Both the position numbers and the translations under genes were made by a program. A stretch of DNA of 32,000 nt, taken from an uncultured Bacilli bacterium (GTDB taxonomy: Bacteria; Bacillota_I; Bacilli_A; RF39; UBA660). Numbering within the stretch: position 1 is the first letter of the stretch; the number at the start of each line of letters is the position of its first letter. Shown in pieces: positions 6,857 to 21,640 of this stretch. The notes under the pieces were generated by a model. That model had not been told where the DNA came from. It did not search any database and saw nothing but the letters and a program-made list of their open reading frames with translations. Location of the stretch: positions 584,950 to 616,949 of the forward strand of contig CAJTLN010000001.1 of the NCBI GenBank assembly GCA_910577505.1. Reading direction: 5' to 3'.

Positions 6857-6912
6857 TTGACCAATAACATATATTCAAATATAATATAAATATATGAACA
6901 CATATTCATATA
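6857..6912 (+). promoter_or_regulatory. promoter plus candidate ArsR/SmtB operator
   Basis: TTGACC at 6857-6862, 17-nt spacer, TATAAT at 6880-6885. Inverted repeat tatatgaa (6891-6898) N6 ttcatata (6905-6912) lies immediately downstream, where a repressor would block transcription. Confidence 0.55.
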
Positions 6913-6929
6913 TAAAAGGAGAAATATTT

Positions 6930-7223
6930 ATGAAATTATTAAATGAAGATAAAGTTATCGATTTATCTGAATTATTTAAAATATTTGGTGATTCAACCAG
7001 AGTAAAAATAATAAATGTTTTATTACACAATGAACTTTGTGTCAATGATATATCAGAACAAATAAATGTAAGTCAGTCAGCTGTATCACATCAATTACGT
7101 ATTTTAAAACAATCTAAATTAGTAAAATATCGTAAAGATGGTCAAACTATATACTACAGTCTTGATGATGATCATGTTGAAAAAATATTTATGATGGGAG
7201 TTGAACACATTGACGAAGTATAA
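6930..7223 (+). CDS. ArsR/SmtB-family metal-responsive repressor (alpha5-site type)
   Basis: AAAGGAG RBS then ATG at 6930 (the track start at 6894 is less likely). Winged-helix signature ELCVNDISEQINVSQSAVSHQLRILKQSKLV. C-terminal DDDHVEKIFMMGVEHIDE fits the SmtB/CzrA alpha5 ligand spacing D-x-H-x10-H-x2-E. Confidence 0.85.
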   Translation: MKLLNEDKVIDLSELFKIFGDSTRVKIINVLLHNELCVNDISEQINVSQSAVSHQLRILKQSKLVKYRKDGQTIYYSLDDDHVEKIFMMGVEHIDEV

Positions 7224-9258
7224 GTATATTTTAAAAGATCTTGATTGCGCTAATTGTGCCCGTGAAATAGAAGAATACTTAGAAAAAGACAAGAATCTAA
7301 AAAATGTTATTGTTAATTATTCTAAATTAAGTTTATCTTTTGAAACTGACCTTAAAGATGTAAAAAAATATGCTTCAAAAAAAGTTAATGAAGTAGAGCC
7401 AGAAGTAACTTTACTAGAACCAGAAGAAGAAAATGACTCAAAGAAAGAAATTATTATCGATTCAATTAAATTAGTAGTTGGTATAGTCCTAACATTAATT
7501 GGTACATTATGCGACTTTGGTATTATTAACAAAATCATCGTTATTCTAGCCTATATAATATTACTTTATGAAATATTCATTAAAGCAATAAAATTATTAT
7601 TTAAATCATTTACAATTAACGAGAATCTTCTAATAACTATATCTTGTATAGGAGCTTATTTCACAGGCAATATAGCTGAAGGTCTAATGGTTATTATTTT
7701 ATATCAAATAGGAGAAATTCTAGAACACTTAGCTGTTAGTAACTCACGTAAATCTATTGCCAATCTTATGGATATTAAACCAGTATATGCTAACTTAGTA
7801 TTGGAAAATGAAATAAGAAGTGTAAATCCAACAGAAGTAAAAATTGGTGATACAATCATTATCCGTAAAGGAGAAAGAATTCCTTTAGATGGTATCATTA
7901 AAAAAGGCGAAACATCACTAGATACAAGCGCCTTAAATGGTGAATCAAAACCTAAATATGTAAAAATTAAAGATGAAGTTTTATCTGGTAGTATAAACTT
8001 AGATGACATAATAGAAGTAATAGTAACTACTAAATATGAAGATAGTACTGTTTCACGTATACTTGACTTAGTAGAAAATGCAACAGATCGTAAAGCTAAA
8101 ACGGAAAACTTTGTTTCTCATGCTGCTAAAATATATACTCCAATAGTTATCGTTTTAGCAATCATAGTAGTGATAACTTTTCCAACTCTTTTAGATATTT
8201 CATTTAAAGAAGCAGTATATCGTGCCTTATCATTTTTAGTTATATCTTGTCCTTGTGCCATAGCTATATCAGTTCCATTAAGTTACTTCTCAGGTATTGG
8301 AGCTGCTTCTAAAAATGGCATTCTAATAAAAGGTAGTGATTATCTTGATGGTCTAAAAGATATAAATAAAATAATATTCGATAAAACAGGCACTATTACA
8401 ACAGGTAAATTCGATAATATTAATCTTGTTATCTTAAATGATTCTTATAAAGAAAAAGACATAATAAACTACTATCTAAAAGGAGAATCATTCTCAACTC
8501 ATCCACTAGCATCATCTATCCAAGATAAATTTAATAAAAAAGTAAAAACAGATGATGTTAAAAACTTTAAAGAACTATCAGGCAAAGGCTTATCTTATGA
8601 AATAGATAACAAAAAAATCTTAATAGGTAGTGCATCTCTAGTAAAATATCAGTGCAAAGATAATTCAATATATCTTAAAGTAGATAATGATATCATAGCT
8701 AAATTAGAACTATCTGATTCCATAAAACCAGGTATCAAAGAAACAATAAATAAACTAAATAAAATGAATATCGAAACTATGATGTTTACTGGTGATGAAA
8801 AGAGTATTGCTACTTCTATTGCTAAAGAGACTAATATTAAAAAAGTAAAATATGAATTACTTCCAGAAGACAAATATAATTTATTAGAACGAGAAATCAA
8901 AACAAATCCAAATAAAACAGCTTTTATCGGAGACGGAATAAATGATGCTCCATCTCTTGCTCGTGCGGATATCGGTATAAGTATGGGTAGTGTAGGTAGT
9001 GCATCTGCAATAGAAGCATCAGATGTTGTCATAATAAATGATGATATAAATAAAATAATTGATGCTATAAATATCTCTAAAAAGACAGATAAAATAATTA
9101 AAGAAAACTTATTATTTGCTATTGGGGTAAAAATACTAGTTTTAACTCTAACAGCAATAGGAATCTCTTCTATGTGGCAAGCAGTATTTGCTGATACAGG
9201 AGTAACATTACTTACTATCATAAATACAACACGCATTTTAAAATATAAGAAAAGATAA
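7201..9258 (+). CDS. heavy-metal translocating P1B-type ATPase (Zn/Cd/Co-like)
   Basis: N-terminal HMA CxxC (CANC), membrane CPC motif (SCPCAIAIS), DKTGTIT phosphorylation site and GDGINDAP hinge. No in-frame ATG precedes the CxxC, so the start is TTG at 7201 or, better placed after GGGAG, TTG at 7210. It overlaps the repressor gene. Confidence 0.9.
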   Translation: MNTLTKYKYILKDLDCANCAREIEEYLEKDKNLKNVIVNYSKLSLSFETDLKDVKKYASKKVNEVEPEVTLLEPEEENDSKKEIIIDSIKLVVGIVLTLIGTLCDFGIINKIIVILAYIILLYEIFIKAIKLLFKSFTINENLLITISCIGAYFTGNIAEGLMVIILYQIGEILEHLAVSNSRKSIANLMDIKPVYANLVLENEIRSVNPTEVKIGDTIIIRKGERIPLDGIIKKGETSLDTSALNGESKPKYVKIKDEVLSGSINLDDIIEVIVTTKYEDSTVSRILDLVENATDRKAKTENFVSHAAKIYTPIVIVLAIIVVITFPTLLDISFKEAVYRALSFLVISCPCAIAISVPLSYFSGIGAASKNGILIKGSDYLDGLKDINKIIFDKTGTITTGKFDNINLVILNDSYKEKDIINYYLKGESFSTHPLASSIQDKFNKKVKTDDVKNFKELSGKGLSYEIDNKKILIGSASLVKYQCKDNSIYLKVDNDIIAKLELSDSIKPGIKETINKLNKMNIETMMFTGDEKSIATSIAKETNIKKVKYELLPEDKYNLLEREIKTNPNKTAFIGDGINDAPSLARADIGISMGSVGSASAIEASDVVIINDDINKIIDAINISKKTDKIIKENLLFAIGVKILVLTLTAIGISSMWQAVFADTGVTLLTIINTTRILKYKKR

Positions 9259-9275
9259 AATCTTTTCTTTTTTTG
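9248..9275 (+). terminator. intrinsic terminator of the metal operon
   Basis: agaaaaga (9248-9255) / tcttttct (9261-9268) stem, then a T-run. Confidence 0.7.
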
Positions 9276-9303
9276 TATACTTATAAATTAAAAGTGCTAT
9301 AAT
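9273..9303 (+). promoter_or_regulatory. promoter of the retron transcript
   Basis: TTGTAT at 9273-9278, extended -10 TGcTATAAT at 9295-9303 (19-nt spacer). This puts the transcript start about where the a1 repeat begins. Confidence 0.5.
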
Positions 9304-9310
9304 ACAACCA

Positions 9311-9480
9311 AGAGCAATAGTGATTGGAATTATTTTATAATTCTAACTTTGACGAGTCGCCAAAGATCAATGTTACCATAAATATAAATCGTAATATTCC
9401 AAGGGACTATTCTACAACTTCGTGTAGATGCGCTTCGCTCCAGTCCATTTCCATATTACAATATCTTAAGTATTGCTCAT
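9311..9480 (+). ncRNA. retron msr/msd non-coding RNA (approximate ends)
   Basis: The gap upstream of the RT gene (about 220 nt after the metal-operon terminator) has no listed ORF. a1 gagcaata (9312-9319) is exactly complementary to a2 tattgctc (9471-9478), with 2 more pairs after one mismatch. G residues at 9320 and 9322 sit right after a1, where a branching G would be. msr-like hairpin gaattat/ataattc at 9327-9343. Long imperfect msd-like hairpin 9391-9408 / 9442-9459 (14 of 18 pairs) with inner stem ctaca/tgtag (9412-9416 / 9423-9427). a2 ends just before the RT RBS. Confidence 0.65.
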
Positions 9481-9495
9481 GAAGGGAGATAGTAT

Positions 9496-10446
9496 ATGTT
9501 ACCAATTACAAAAGAACAAAGTAATGAATTTTTACTATCTCTAAATTTAATTGATAAAGACATTCCAGATTCTAAAAAAATCAAAATTCTTTATGCCATA
9601 AGTAATAGAATAGAATCCAACTATAATGTCTATAAAATAAAAAAACATAATGGCTCATATAGAACAATCTATGCTCCAAAACCATTATTAAAAAGTATTC
9701 AAAGAAAAATACTAAAAAATATCTTAAATAACAAAGAAATATCTAAGTATGCTAAGGCTTACCATAAAGGGATAAGTTTAAAAGATAATGCTTATCCACA
9801 CCTTAATAAAAAAATAATTTTAAAACTTGATATTGTTGATTTCTTTGAAAATATTAACTTTTATGAAGTTTACCAAAATTGCTTTAGCACACCATATTTT
9901 CCTGAATCGATTGGTCATCTTCTTACATATTTATGTACTTATGAATCACGTCTTCCTCAAGGAGCTCCAACATCATCGTATATATCAAACTTAGTAATGA
10001 AAGAATTTGATGAGGAAATAGGAGATTATTGCAATCAAAGAGATATCTCATATACAAGATATTCAGATGATATGACATTTTCAGGTGACTTTAATCCTAG
10101 TGAAATAATTACCAAAGTTCGTAAAATGTTATACAAATTAAATCTAAAAATAAATAATAAAAAGATTCATATAATAAATAATTCTCAACAACAAAATGTT
10201 ACAGGAATTATTGTAAATAAAAAAATTCAAACATCATCAAGATATCGCAATAAAATTCGTCAAGAAATTTATTATATAAATAAATTTGGTTTAAAAGAAC
10301 ATCTATCTAAAACAAATTACAAAGATAAGCCAACTAAATATCTAGATTCTCTTTATGGAAAAATACTATACATCTTAAGTATTGATTCTACTAATAAAGA
10401 ATTCATTAAGTATAAAGAATTAGTTAACCATTTAAAAAATAACTAA
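9496..10446 (+). CDS. retron-type reverse transcriptase (316 aa)
   Basis: AAGGGAG RBS. RT motifs: AYHKGISLKDNAYPH...LKLDIVDFFENI (domains 1-2), LPQGAPTSSYISN (domain 4), YTRYSDDMTFS (catalytic YSDD, nt 10060-10071), and the retron-diagnostic VTG in NVTGIIVNKK (nt 10198-10206). Size is typical of retron RTs. No maturase or endonuclease extension. Confidence 0.85.
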   Translation: MLPITKEQSNEFLLSLNLIDKDIPDSKKIKILYAISNRIESNYNVYKIKKHNGSYRTIYAPKPLLKSIQRKILKNILNNKEISKYAKAYHKGISLKDNAYPHLNKKIILKLDIVDFFENINFYEVYQNCFSTPYFPESIGHLLTYLCTYESRLPQGAPTSSYISNLVMKEFDEEIGDYCNQRDISYTRYSDDMTFSGDFNPSEIITKVRKMLYKLNLKINNKKIHIINNSQQQNVTGIIVNKKIQTSSRYRNKIRQEIYYINKFGLKEHLSKTNYKDKPTKYLDSLYGKILYILSIDSTNKEFIKYKELVNHLKNN

Positions 10447-10470
10447 TTCTTTTCTTTTTATAAGGAAAAT

Positions 10471-10499
10471 TTGCCAAATCTTAATATTTCAATTATAAT
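10471..10499 (+). promoter_or_regulatory. possible internal promoter ahead of the kinase-like gene
   Basis: TTGCCA at 10471-10476, 17-nt spacer, TATAAT at 10494-10499, in the 79-nt gap after the RT gene. I saw no terminator in that gap. Confidence 0.4.
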
Positions 10500-10525
10500 T
10501 TATTAATAATTAAGGGGAGATTTAT

Positions 10526-11422
10526 ATGAAAGTAACTACAATTTCTAAAAGAAAATTTAGAGAATTACAACCACTACAATTAGGTCAAGAAATATGTAAT
10601 TCAGAAAGTAAAATACTTGATTTTAGAATAAGAGGAGAGCATAAAATTTTAAAAGTTCTTAATGAACAAGATGGAGAATATTATGCCACAAAACTATATA
10701 CTGTAGAAATGTTAGATACTTATAAAGAATACCTACCTAAAAGTTTATACATCCCGGATACTTTAGCAGTTGTTGGTAATGATACAGTTGGGTTTACAGT
10801 TCCTTTTTTAGAAGGAACAAACTTATCCACTATATTAAAATCTACTAAAGTTGATTTTAAAGAACATATCTATTATTTAAGAAAAATAGGTCAATTATTA
10901 GAACAATTAAGAAACGTAAGAAAATATACACCATTAAAAGACTTTTATTTAAACGATATTCATGAATCAAACTTTATTGTTAATCCAAATAACAGAGATA
11001 TAGGAGCAATAGATCTTGATAGTTCTAAAATTGGAAGCAATGGTGTATATCCTTCTAGATATGCTTCACCATGTTCCTTAGTAAAACATGTTCCATCAAA
11101 ATATCATGTTAATGAAAGCGGTAAGTGTGGAGGATTTATATTACCAGATGATAATTCTGAAATATACTGTTATGTCATGACTATTTTAAATTATCTTTTT
11201 GGTGGAAACATATTTCGTTTAAATTTAGAAGAATTTTATATTTATTTAAATTATTTAGACTTAATTGGAATTGATAAAGAATTAATAACTATAATAGAAA
11301 AAATAGTAACAACAGGACCTAACGTTAATCCAGAACCATATTTAGAAACTTTAACATTAGAACAAGTAAGTAGATCACGAGAAAATGTTTATAAACTAGC
11401 AAAAACAAAATTAATGAAATAA
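10526..11422 (+). CDS. protein-kinase-like fold protein, putative retron effector (298 aa)
   Basis: AAGGGGA RBS. Catalytic-loop-like LNDIHESNF has D144 and N149 with the D-x4-N spacing of HRDLKPEN. IDLD (D163) lies 19 residues later, like the DFG Asp. HKILKVL is a candidate beta3 Lys. Same strand as, and immediately 3' of, the retron RT. Shares the downstream terminator. Confidence 0.55.
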   Translation: MKVTTISKRKFRELQPLQLGQEICNSESKILDFRIRGEHKILKVLNEQDGEYYATKLYTVEMLDTYKEYLPKSLYIPDTLAVVGNDTVGFTVPFLEGTNLSTILKSTKVDFKEHIYYLRKIGQLLEQLRNVRKYTPLKDFYLNDIHESNFIVNPNNRDIGAIDLDSSKIGSNGVYPSRYASPCSLVKHVPSKYHVNESGKCGGFILPDDNSEIYCYVMTILNYLFGGNIFRLNLEEFYIYLNYLDLIGIDKELITIIEKIVTTGPNVNPEPYLETLTLEQVSRSRENVYKLAKTKLMK

Positions 11423-11423
11423 A

Positions 11424-11460
11424 AAAGACTATTATAAAGCATATCACTATAATAGTCTTT
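11424..11460. terminator. bidirectional intrinsic terminator
   Basis: Perfect 13-bp stem aaagactattata (11424-11436) / tataatagtcttt (11448-11460), flanked by an A-run and a T-run. It serves the convergent genes on both sides. Confidence 0.85.
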
Positions 11461-11721
11461 TTATTTTGTAAAAGCAGCTCTTTTACTTTGAACTTCTATA
11501 TATTCGAATTTATATTTTTGCTCTACTTCGGGATACTTTTCATGATTAACTTCTTCTAAAAAATCATTTTTTTCTCTTATATATAAAGCGCCGTCGCCAT
11601 AAAGCTTACGATATATAACATAAGGAGTAACACCATCATCACTGCTAATTGCAATATCTTCGACCAAATAGTGATCTCCTTTAAAGTGTCTATAAATACC
11701 TTTAATAACTAATTCTCTCAT
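11461..11721 (-). CDS. DUF1653-family small protein
   Basis: YRHFKGDHYLVEDIA...YVIYRKLYGDGALYIRE matches my memory of the DUF1653 signature. GGGAGG RBS on the minus strand. Confidence 0.6.
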   Translation of the reverse strand: MRELVIKGIYRHFKGDHYLVEDIAISSDDGVTPYVIYRKLYGDGALYIREKNDFLEEVNHEKYPEVEQKYKFEYIEVQSKRAAFTK

Positions 11722-11813
11722 TTATATACCTCCCAAAATATTATAACACGTATAATACAAAATAAGTTGAAACAATGTTATAATAATATATATAATAAAA
11801 AAGAGATGATAAA

Positions 11814-12989
11814 ATGAAAAAAAAGACAAAAATAATAATAATTACTTTAATATTAATACTTATAATAATTTCATATGGCATATATCTTAATTCTAAAAAA
11901 TTAATTCTAGAATATACAGATAATTTAGAAGTGCTTCTTAATCAAGAAGTATACAATTTGGATAATATAAAAGAAATAAAAAACGGTAAAATTATAACTG
12001 AAAAGGAACAAATAGATACAACAAAAATATCCAAAAAAGAAATAACTATCAAAGTAGAAAATTTTTTCAAAAAAATAAAAGAATATAAATATACAATCAC
12101 TATAGTTGATAAAGAATCACCAGTAATTACTTTTAAAAAAGAATTAGAAATTGAAAAAGGTGAAGAAATTAATCTATTAAAAGATGTCAAAGTTGAAGAT
12201 AATTCAAAAGAAGAGATAAAAGCTTTTATAGAAGGTGAATACGATATAAATAAGCCAGATAACTATAAACTATATTATATTGCTGAAGATAGTAGTGGTA
12301 ATAAAACAAAAGAAGAATTTATCTTACATGTTAAAGAAAAAAAGATTGAAGAGCCAATAAATCATCCTAAAAATAATTCTAATCTAAATAGTAACAATAC
12401 TAATTCTAATAATAATCAATCAAGCGATAAAACCTTTACAACTAAAAAAGGCTTTAAAGGAGTTACAAAAAATGGTATTACTTATATTGATGGGTATATG
12501 ATTGTTAATAAAACATATTCTTTGCCATCAACTTATGAAACATCACTTACTAAAGAAACAACTAATAATTTTAATAAAATGAAAAGTGCTGCTACTTTAG
12601 AAGGATTAAATATATATATTTCCAGTGGTTTTAGATCATATGATACCCAAAAAAGATTATATAATAATTATGTAAAAAGAGATGGAGTAGAAGCCGCCGA
12701 TACATATTCGGCAAGAGCGGGACATTCAGAACACCAATCTGGCTTAGCTTTTGATGTAAATACCATAAACGATACATTTGCAAGTACACCAGAAGCCAAA
12801 TGGTTAGCAAATAATTGCTATAAATATGGTTTTATTCTTCGTTATCCTCAAGGTAAAAGTAATGAAACAGGTTATAAATATGAATCATGGCATTTTAGAT
12901 ATGTTGGAGTAGAATTAGCTGAAAAATTATACAATAACGGAAATTGGATTACTATGGAAGATTATTTTGGTATAACTAGTATATATTAA
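11814..12989 (+). CDS. membrane-anchored D-alanyl-D-alanine carboxypeptidase, VanY/M15B family, with Ig-like (DUF5011-like) middle domain
   Basis: N-terminal TM (IIIITLILILIIISYGIYL). Ig-like segment (DKESPVITF...YYIAEDSSGNKTKEEFILHV). M15B metal and catalytic motifs SGFRSY, GHSEHQSGLAFDV and ESWHFRYVG. Confidence 0.85.
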   Translation: MKKKTKIIIITLILILIIISYGIYLNSKKLILEYTDNLEVLLNQEVYNLDNIKEIKNGKIITEKEQIDTTKISKKEITIKVENFFKKIKEYKYTITIVDKESPVITFKKELEIEKGEEINLLKDVKVEDNSKEEIKAFIEGEYDINKPDNYKLYYIAEDSSGNKTKEEFILHVKEKKIEEPINHPKNNSNLNSNNTNSNNNQSSDKTFTTKKGFKGVTKNGITYIDGYMIVNKTYSLPSTYETSLTKETTNNFNKMKSAATLEGLNIYISSGFRSYDTQKRLYNNYVKRDGVEAADTYSARAGHSEHQSGLAFDVNTINDTFASTPEAKWLANNCYKYGFILRYPQGKSNETGYKYESWHFRYVGVELAEKLYNNGNWITMEDYFGITSIY

Positions 12990-18873: not shown

Positions 18874-18950
18874 GGTCCGTTGGTGAAGTGGTTTAACACA
18901 TAACCCTCTCAAGGTTACATACATGGGTCCGAATCCCATACGGATCACCA
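18874..18950 (+). tRNA. tRNA-Glu, anticodon CUC, with encoded CCA
   Basis: Cloverleaf by hand: acceptor GGTCCGT/ACGGATC (one G-U pair), anticodon stem taacc/ggtta with loop C-U-CUC-A-A, T stem atggg/cccat. Overall near-collinear with Bacillus tRNA-Glu as I remember it. Candidate promoter TTGAAT (18822-18827) / TGaTAGAAT (18841-18849) lies upstream. Confidence 0.85.
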
Positions 18951-21423: not shown

Positions 21424-21429
21424 TAAACC

Positions 21430-21640
21430 ACAAACGAGGAAAAAGAAGAGTAAATTAGTCATTATATTATAGAGAACTCTTGGCTGGTGTAAAAGAGCAT
21501 ATAAACTAATTGAAGAAACTTTGGAGTTGAATACTGTATACAAGGTATTCCGCTAGTAGCGTTAAAACATTAAGGTGTATTAATACACAAATTAAGGTGG
21601 TACCACGACATATTCGTCCTTTAGATGAATATGTTTTTTT
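21430..21640 (+). promoter_or_regulatory. T-box riboswitch leader, Glu-specific (specifier GAA)
   Basis: Stem I elements GAAGAGTA, then aattagt (21453-21459) pairing with actaatt (21505-21511). Specifier-loop GAA at 21515-21517 is followed by A. Conserved T-box sequence aattaaggtggtaccacg at 21590-21607. Terminator acatattc (21608-21615) / gaatatgt (21627-21634) plus T-run. Confidence 0.8.

Follow-up and report, generated by a model that had tools for sequence, protein, structure and literature searches.

The window is the whole stretch of DNA that was analysed, 32,000 nucleotides from an uncultured gut Bacilli bacterium. Between a P-type ATPase gene and a DUF1653 gene it carries a non-coding RNA (ncRNA) and reverse transcriptase (RT) of retron type, followed on the same strand by a gene for a protein of kinase fold. 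The features are as follows.

9242..9274, + strand: upstream terminator hairpin (inverted repeat I3, 15-nt arms 87% complementary, then a T-run), overlapping the stop codon of the P-type ATPase gene as its intrinsic terminator
9295..9303, + strand: putative extended -10 (TGcTATAAT) of the retron transcript, read from the sequence
9309..9481, + strand: retron ncRNA (msr-msd), ~170 nt, from inverted repeats I8, I9 and I1, fold and covariation
9309-9319, + strand: a2 arm, 11 nt, 91% complementary to a1
9320 and 9322, + strand: invariant G residues just 3' of a2, candidate branching G
9324-9346 and 9347-9365, + strand: msr stem-loops
9388-9462, + strand: msd hairpin
9471-9481, + strand: a1 arm, 11 nt, 91% complementary to a2
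9496..10446, + strand: retron RT, 316 aa, from ORF, profiles and motifs
9787-9801, + strand: NAYPH, residue 98, retron region X (NAxxH)
10060-10071, + strand: YSDD, residue 189, YxDD catalytic site
10198-10206, + strand: VTG, residue 235, retron region Y
10471..10499, + strand: the kinase-like gene's own promoter, sigma-70-type TTGCCA-17-TATAAT, from a consensus scan and conservation
10526..11422, + strand: protein-kinase-fold gene, 298 aa, from ORF, invariant residues and predicted structure
11422..11462, no strand assigned: bidirectional terminator hairpin, 15-bp stem
11461-11721, - strand: DUF1653 ORF, from the ORF list and a profile match

An earlier note on this DNA had described one terminator-delimited cassette in which the kinase-fold protein was a possible new class of retron effector. 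Several parts of that description stand: a structured non-coding sequence, about 170 nt long and bounded by inverted repeats, is seen in the arms, the fold and the consensus structure; the 316-aa RT with VTG and YSDD is confirmed by its motifs and by Pfam and PADLOC profiles; and the gap between the RT and the 298-aa ORF is exactly 79 nt. Terminators at both ends of the region were likewise confirmed by folding (9240-9280, -10 kcal/mol, z -4.4; 11420-11466, -13.8 kcal/mol, z -8.5). A consensus terminator scan picked up neither hairpin, since it demands at least 3 G-C pairs and the genome has 25% GC, whereas folding showed both to be real. The hairpin at 9242..9274 marks the upstream limit of the retron insertion. 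The one at 11422..11462 is common to the kinase-like gene (+) and the DUF1653 gene (-), which converge on it.

Searches with the RT placed it among retron enzymes. The best PADLOC model was RT_Ec107-like (3.7e-129, 428.5 bits, profile positions 2-305 of 307) and the second-best models were RT_III-A (1.1e-105), while 57 further PADLOC models of retron and related RTs also matched, as did Pfam RVT_1 (6.5e-25). The NCBIfam model retron_St85_RT matched at 1.1e-62 with 211.9 bits, under its 235-bit cutoff. The definitions of regions X and Y were taken from Mestre 2020 (PMC7736814). By its full-length profile match, the RT falls in the Ec107 (Retron-Eco5)-like branch, a group noted for having no dedicated effector next to the RT, and together with the predicted ncRNA its motifs indicate that the segment is a genuine retron.

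The ncRNA is built like a retron transcript: its ends carry the a2/a1 repeats, the G that follows a2 is conserved, and msr stem-loops precede a long msd hairpin. It folds at -39.1 kcal/mol (z -2.45). An RNAalifold consensus of seven orthologous loci contained 44 pairs, 10 of them with compensatory changes, which indicates selection on the structure. No retron ncRNA family in Rfam matched it, even when the cutoff was relaxed from the gathering threshold to E<=10. Upstream, the TATAAT block of the extended -10 is largely kept across the seven loci of alignment A2; a weak -35 explains why the site went unflagged in the consensus scan. Transcription from this putative promoter would yield the ~170-nt msr-msd RNA, the two ends of which would pair through a2 and a1. 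The RT would then start synthesis from the 2'-OH of the invariant G that follows a2, with the msd hairpin as template, to give an msDNA of roughly 80-90 nt.

Since no effector was recognisable with PADLOC and the host genomes appear small, we considered whether the retron might be a relic in decay that no longer functions and is tolerated where it lies. However, the RT ORF is uninterrupted and carries every catalytic and retron-specific motif, lineages retain the RT at 67-88% identity, at least 66% identity to it is seen in more than 120 clusters (at 90% identity), and the ncRNA carries the compensatory changes described above. We regard decay as extremely improbable.

The surroundings of the retron were described in the earlier note as accessory DNA among orphan genes, and this did not hold. 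The genes flanking the retron and the kinase recur in related genomes as a syntenic backbone that is conserved, and GC content is even across the window at about 0.25. We looked through GC for a compositional signal of recent acquisition and saw none, and a recent horizontal gain of a cassette was rejected on this uniformity. A 12-mer, TCTTTTCTTTTT, lies on both sides of the retron (9261 and 10448) and was considered as a target-site duplication, but it recurs behind the ends of two further genes (15282 and 17723) and is therefore a generic T-rich 3'-end motif. PADLOC gave no match for the 10 proteins neighbouring the retron. The upstream gene g6185/g5188 was rejected as an alternative effector, as it has no Pfam or PADLOC match; it is also not conserved beside the RT in loci L146, L147 or L153.

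We are confident from its predicted, bilobal structure that the 298-aa protein belongs to the protein-kinase-like fold superfamily, as the earlier note had proposed. K43, D144, N149, D163 and D165 are invariant among 42 homologs, and the AF2 model (pLDDT 94.2, pTM 0.92) gave more than 1850 Foldseek matches in the PDB at E<=0.001. Among the 50 matches listed, all were protein kinases (TM ~0.55-0.59), and the best were eukaryotic-type protein kinases. A profile of the family also matched the SalKC kinase domain (7.7e-05). The protein reached no Pfam gathering threshold, with APH as its only match (E=0.099, 12.8 bits against a cutoff of 23.2), and neither a single-sequence search of the PDB nor one of NCBIfam found a match. 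Sub-threshold Pfam matches to Pkinase, APH or ABC1 were seen in only 4-7 of the 42 homologs. The family consists of compact proteins of about 295 aa that are common in related gut Bacilli, and at E<=1e-30 it comprises 294 clusters at 50% identity and corresponds to no Pfam family. Its architecture is uniform and single-domain, with no sensor domain found.

A dedicated effector of this fold would be silenced by the RT-msDNA complex, freed on phage infection, and would then phosphorylate host or phage targets. In favour of this reading, the two genes lie on the same strand across the 79-nt gap with no strong terminator between them, and the kinase catalytic residues are intact. The adjacency, the orientation and a spacer of about 65-80 nt are kept in seven variants at species level, among which RT identity falls as low as 67%, all of them within one syntenic lineage. 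It would also be a novelty, since the earlier note's claim that catalogued retron types lack a kinase effector proved correct: the paper with the 13-type catalogue, Mestre 2020 (PMC7736814), never uses the word 'kinase'.

If the kinase were a retron effector, its family would be expected beside retron RTs in other genomes, as the earlier note had asked, and we found that it is not. A census of kinase homologs by peptide patterns and word-seeded searches gives approximate fractions and missed the most divergent RT-linked kinases, such as that of L144 (42% identity). Within these bounds, an RT adjoins a kinase homolog in 2 of 57 species-representative genomes (L005 and L015, within the fetched flanks) and in one of 80 metagenome contigs (L064), about 58 of which extend at least 1.3 kb upstream of the kinase. 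All three adjacencies are one syntenic locus, and because every RT-kinase pair lies there, the adjacency is indistinguishable from inherited gene order. Kinase homologs stand without a retron at more than 100 other loci, and in most genomes the gene adjoins housekeeping genes such as those for ThrRS, PBP2, IF3, L20 and FtsA/Z. One apparent further pairing, of kinase P0034 with RT P0123, was rejected as a coincidence, L063 being without an RT. Septu PtuAB and other effector families known from retrons mostly occur outside retrons too, so the rarity of the kinase beside RTs is not decisive alone.

Loci with only one of the two genes bear on the same question. Five syntenic loci with the same backbone (L092, L008, L084, L076 and L078) are free of the retron and keep the kinase. 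In L092, an ArsR-ATPase pair is followed by a 77-bp spacer with the kinase promoter and then by the kinase, DUF1653, dCMP deaminase and PNP genes, and in L008 the order is ATPase, kinase, DUF1653 and VanY. The kinase-like gene and the DUF1653 gene form a conserved convergent pair. Conversely, the retron persists without the kinase: in L146 (RT 71%) the kinase is deleted and the RT abuts DUF1653, and in L147 (RT 67%) the RT lies in a different genomic context without the kinase; the ncRNA is conserved in both. In L153 (RT 69%), a 387-aa gene stands between the RT and the kinase, which is split into two ORFs.

The promoter of the kinase-like gene argues in the same direction. With 11 of 12, the site at 10471-10499 ties for the highest score on the + strand in a scan of 9000-11900, and it is kept upstream of kinase homologs both with and without the retron. 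The view of RT and kinase as one cassette was therefore not upheld, since the best promoter-like site falls in the gap between them and is retained in retron-free kinase loci. Folding of the stretch that leads from the RT stop codon to this site gave no significant hairpin (-4.3 kcal/mol, z -0.78), and because there is no convincing terminator in between, co-transcription by read-through from the RT is possible.

Co-evolution of the RT and the kinase beyond the species background was not apparent in the five taxa compared. Their pairwise identities are uncorrelated (r=0.07, 10 pairs), whereas those of the RT and the backbone gene g14300 give r=0.93. The locus that carries both kinase P0013 and RT P0114 (L062) matches the window at 88% in the RT and 86% in DUF1653 but at only 53% in the kinase. 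The RT-linked kinases are also not monophyletic in a neighbour-joining tree computed without bootstrap. Together, the mostly RT-free distribution of the kinase, the empty sites, the RTs without a kinase and the lack of correlation mean that a new retron effector class is not borne out, and we consider a dedicated effector highly improbable. Since the gene is found mostly without any retron, it is very unlikely from its distribution that the kinase-fold protein represents a new type of effector.

A further reading takes the kinase-like gene for a conflict or defence kinase that acts on its own and distantly resembles PD-T4-6; with the retron it would form a defence islet of two independent immune genes that are side by side by chance. 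The family changes much faster than its flanking genes, and in jumps relative to them, in lineages with and without the RT: between L040 and L047 the kinase is 45% identical and the flanks 80%, and between the window and L062 the 53% of the kinase compares with 82% for the flanks. Kinase allele classes at one locus are not monophyletic (neighbour-joining tree, no bootstrap). PADLOC models of PD-T4-6, a single-gene Ser/Thr-kinase defence (PDLC04044 and others), match 15 of 42 family members (best 6.9e-06), a weak likeness that could also be cited in favour of an effector. For the window kinase the match is marginal (E=0.0045, 14 bits), and since Pfam Pkinase, APH and ABC1 matches are similarly weak, the PD-T4-6 matches may reflect generic kinase-domain similarity. 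The window protein resembles PD-T4-6 in being single-domain, but its family stands mostly among housekeeping rather than defence genes, its uniform architecture lacks a sensor domain, and its neighbours in the window have no PADLOC matches. The fast evolution and the weak PD-T4-6 matches appear compatible with a conflict-related role, but we consider an independent defence gene unlikely.

There is a precedent for a kinase that lies beside a retron and works without it. In Retron-Sda1, an adjacent HipA-like kinase/DUF3037 acted independently of the RT and the ncRNA in defence (PLoS Biol 2025, PMC12548924), which counts against a dedicated effector and in favour of an independent gene. The window shares with Retron-Sda1 an RT of the type III neighbourhood beside a kinase-fold gene in place of the usual effector. 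It differs in that its kinase is not HipA-like (the best Foldseek matches are eukaryotic-type kinases, and Pfam HipA does not match) and in that it has no DUF3037 partner.

Among the known systems, the Ec107 branch is the closest by RT profile. In clade 2, Ec107 (Retron-Eco5) retrons are stand-alone msr-msd/RT cassettes without an associated protein, with an adjacent protein at only 2 of 59 RTs, and the branch joins the PRTase-linked RTs at a common node (Mestre 2020, PMC7736814). Like these, the window retron has no specifically associated protein, is chromosomal and not prophage-linked, appears to be inherited vertically in its uncultured lineage, and has the canonical layout of a2/a1, msr and msd. 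It differs from the branch in its YSDD active site and in an msDNA that is predicted from sequence, and while clade 2 is mostly from Gammaproteobacteria (Mestre 2020, PMC7736814), its host belongs to a low-GC lineage of uncultured gut Bacilli. Type III-A retrons, which combine an RT with a PRTase-like protein and in some cases a winged-helix protein, come second by RT model; PADLOC found neither partner among the 10 neighbours in the window, and the kinase-fold protein is not a PRTase.

We therefore conclude that positions 9295-10446 are probably a stand-alone Ec107-like retron and that the kinase gene is a resident neighbour rather than a dedicated effector. With its own promoter, its pairing with DUF1653 and its overwhelmingly RT-free occurrence, the kinase is a neighbour by insertion-site history. 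The retron occupies one fixed chromosomal site in this gut Bacilli lineage, immediately upstream of the resident kinase gene. Like the Ec107-like branch as a whole, it may act with a partner in trans or serve a purpose other than defence. It remains conceivable, at low odds, that an Ec107-like retron has come to control this downstream gene, as a nascent kinase-type retron with msDNA-gated, phosphorylation-based abortive infection; if true, the orphan Ec107-like branch would gain in the kinase its first functional partner.

What we describe is an orphan retron that has long resided in gut Bacilli, beside an unrelated and fast-evolving kinase-like gene. One more stand-alone Ec107-like retron is an ordinary result, and the locus also serves as a caution, since adjacency inside one syntenic lineage is no evidence for a retron effector. 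The gene next to the retron establishes a kinase-like family that carries no annotation. Our findings further indicate that orphan retrons of this kind are abundant and that gut Bacilli with small genomes inherit them stably at one fixed site, an observation relevant to the role that retrons play without an effector.

The earlier note had placed the open reading frames (ORFs) of a retron reverse transcriptase (RT) and of a 298-aa protein 79 nt apart, and both were confirmed. Between a TGcTATAAT element and the RT, we found the canonical layout of a retron noncoding RNA (ncRNA), with paired end arms (a2/a1) and two parts (msr and msd).

7201-9258: P-type ATPase gene, upstream of the retron
9295-9303: TGcTATAAT element, upstream of the ncRNA
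9309-9319 and 9471-9481: ncRNA arms, 11 nt, 91% complementary
msr part of the ncRNA: two stem-loops
9388-9462: msd part of the ncRNA, a long hairpin
9496-10446: RT ORF, 316 aa, with NAYPH at residue 98, YSDD at 189, and VTG at 235
10526-11422: kinase-fold ORF, 298 aa
11461-11721, - strand: DUF1653 gene, downstream and convergent

The RT matched Pfam RVT_1 (6.5e-25), and its top PADLOC model was RT_Ec107-like (3.7e-129, profile positions 2-305 of 307), with RT_III-A next (1.1e-105); its match to NCBIfam retron_St85_RT (1.1e-62) fell under that model's cutoff. The minimum free energy of the ncRNA was -39.1 kcal/mol (z -2.45), and no Rfam family matched it. When the window was aligned with the upstream regions of six orthologous loci, whose RTs are 67-88% identical, the RNAalifold consensus held 44 pairs, 10 with compensatory double changes, and TAGTG immediately 3' of a2 was invariant. 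Folding also bore out the flanking hairpins (-10 kcal/mol, z -4.4, and -13.8 kcal/mol, z -8.5). Together, the RT motifs and profiles, the structured, conserved ncRNA, and these hairpins uphold the retron itself, whose msDNA synthesis is predicted. An Rfam scan also found a T-box leader (126 bits, 21428-21624) and a tRNA gene (18874-18947), with no relation to the retron or kinase.

For the 298-aa protein, nothing in Pfam exceeded the threshold (sole match APH, E=0.099), and a single-sequence search of the PDB returned no match. Its homologs, each about 295 aa long, group into 108 clusters at 90% identity, and a profile search reached 294 clusters at 50% identity (E<=1e-30). Five residues, K43, D144, N149, D163, and D165, lie in the motifs ..KVLK.., NDxHxxN, and IDLDS and never vary among 42 aligned homologs. 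An AF2 model from this alignment (pLDDT 94.2, pTM 0.92) gave >1850 Foldseek matches in the PDB at E<=0.001, and the best 50 listed were all protein kinases (CK2alpha, JAK1, and BAK1 among them; TM about 0.55-0.59), while the family profile weakly matched the kinase domain of the lanthipeptide synthetase SalKC (7.7e-05). On these residues and matches the kinase-fold call was correct, and the protein, as modeled, has a kinase fold.

The earlier note had further proposed this kinase as a possible undescribed retron effector class, to be judged by its enrichment beside retron RTs. A family pattern scan of one genome per GTDB species yielded 57 kinase loci, and tblastn with the window RT detected an RT in two (L005, kinase 84% and RT 87% identical; L015, 76% and 67%) and none inside the fetched flanks of the other 55. 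A metagenome scan added 80 kinase loci, about 58 with at least 1.3 kb upstream; one of the 80 (L064, of the same lineage as L015) had an RT, and both proportions are approximate since peptide-pattern and word-seed retrieval failed to capture the RT-linked kinases that have diverged most. Elsewhere, the kinase neighbors were housekeeping genes (e.g., ThrRS, PBP2, ScpA, IF3, L20, EF-G, and FtsA/FtsZ), with no recurrent partner gene. Since enrichment beside RTs was not found, the proposed functional link between retron and kinase is unsupported.

On the RT side, a search returned 2879 homologs, including >120 clusters (90% identity) with at least 66% identity to the window RT; seven of these were looked up, along with loci reached from the kinase side. 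In this sample, the order RT-kinase-DUF1653 occurred in seven species-level variants (the window; L005; L062; L015 with L064 and L151; L144 with L145; L149; L155) and was broken in three lineages. L146 (RT 71%) has no kinase, and DUF1653 directly abuts the RT. L147 and L148 (RT 67%), which stand for a large group of roughly 68%-identity RT clusters, have another genomic context and no kinase, and split GATase fragments follow the RT. In L153 (RT 69%, GCA_947626095.1, L153:5159-7305), the RT and a kinase homolog are separated by an unrelated predicted membrane protein of 387 aa. That homolog is broken into ORFs of 219 and 80 aa, by either a pseudogenizing frameshift or an error of MAG assembly. 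L146 and L147 retain the conserved ncRNA, so the retron is kept without the kinase. In L147 (5979-6664), from the most abundant related-RT group (about 68% identity), the two short ORFs after the RT together resemble pieces of one GATase/Peptidase_C26 gene, which is probably a pseudogene. In L146 (2221-4768), the retron is preceded by a DUF87 (HerA-like) ATPase of 615 aa and a protein of 232 aa without family, a pair that could be a separate defense module.

The kinase gene is a member of the conserved chromosomal backbone, since several RT-free loci share the gene order of the window (g5188 and g16515 are genes of this backbone):

L092: g5188 ... ArsR (78%), ATPase (67%), kinase (46%), DUF1653 (68%), dCMP deaminase, PNP, g16515, Bax1
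L008: ATPase C-terminus, terminator, then kinase, DUF1653, VanY, dCMP deaminase
L084, L076, L078: g5188 ... kinase, DUF1653 ... dCMP deaminase, PNP
L033: ArsR, ATPase, kinase

In L092, the kinase gene starts just 77 bp after the ATPase stop, and this spacer bears the same kinase promoter, there TTGCTT-17-TATAAT. In the window, the ~1.2-kb retron sits after the ATPase terminator and before the kinase promoter. Within the RT-kinase gap, TTGCCA-17-TATAAT at 10471-10499 is the joint best promoter-like + strand site of 9000-11900, and loci with and without an RT alike keep the motif AAAATTTGCxA ... TATAAT ahead of the kinase gene. Past the RT stop, folding gave no significant hairpin (-4.3 kcal/mol, z -0.78), so transcription may read through from the retron into the kinase gene. 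Four copies of the 12-mer TCTTTTCTTTTT lie in the window (0.19 expected; 9261, 10448, 15282, and 17723), each directly after a + strand gene end, and this T-rich sequence is probably a 3'-end or terminator tail common in this genome.

The ArsR-like regulator and P-type ATPase pair (6894-9258) immediately precedes the retron in the window and L153 and the kinase in L092, L008, and L033. L005, L015, and L062 lack the pair there, so this metal-ATPase module is variably present at the site. The kinase-like and DUF1653 genes converge, 12-61 bp apart, in a conserved arrangement (window 10526-11721; L008, L076, L084, L092, L115, L144, L149, and L155); they share a terminator hairpin in the window, and many lineages retain the pair with or without a retron.

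In a small sample of five taxa with both genes (10 pairs), RT and kinase pairwise identities were uncorrelated (r=0.07), whereas RT identities tracked those of the backbone gene g14300 (r=0.93). The strong RT-effector tree correlation of true retron systems (Mestre et al. 2020, PMC7736814) is absent at this locus. The clearest case is L062, where RT (88%), DUF1653 (86%), and Ppx (90%) are close to the window and the kinase is only 53% identical; a neighbor-joining tree (no bootstrap) did not unite the RT-linked kinases but put them at two or more positions among RT-free ones. RT-free pairs jump likewise (L040 and L047, kinase 45%, flanks 80%; L018 and L025, 66% and 89%), so jumpy divergence is a general property of the family. 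Related genomes often differ far more in the kinase than in its flanks (e.g., 44-53% versus 77-82%), as at L040/L047, L018/L025, L046/L059, L051/L054, and L062, whether or not a retron is present, a pattern suggestive of allele replacement or diversifying selection on this unannotated family. Given this fast evolution and the weak matches of 15 of 42 family members to PADLOC PD-T4-6 kinase models, the kinase may be a conflict gene in its own right, although those matches are marginal (best 6.9e-06) and its usual context is housekeeping.

None of the 13 retron types of Mestre et al. 2020 (PMC7736814) includes a kinase, a word that occurs 0 times there. The Ec107 branch of clade 2, to which the best PADLOC model of the window RT belongs, comprises stand-alone msr-msd/RT cassettes with an adjacent protein in only 2 of 59 RTs, and that study left open whether such cassettes act through trans effectors or serve some other function. 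Ten neighboring proteins searched against PADLOC gave no PRTase and no other match. The nearest precedent for a kinase beside a retron is Retron-Sda1, where the defense given by an adjacent HipA-like kinase/DUF3037 pair did not depend on the RT and ncRNA (PMC12548924). Functional coupling of kinase and retron in the window's lineage is very unlikely in our estimation.

The retron (9295-10446) occupies the same chromosomal position in L005, L015, L062, L144, L146, L149, L153, and L155 with RTs only 67-88% identical, which, together with the RT tracking g14300, implies that it has long been inherited vertically and is not mobile. We consider it likely that a stand-alone Ec107-like retron, long resident and passed on vertically at one chromosomal site of this uncultured gut Bacilli lineage, lies just upstream of a resident kinase-like gene with its own promoter. 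Such long vertical inheritance would be unusual for defense genes.
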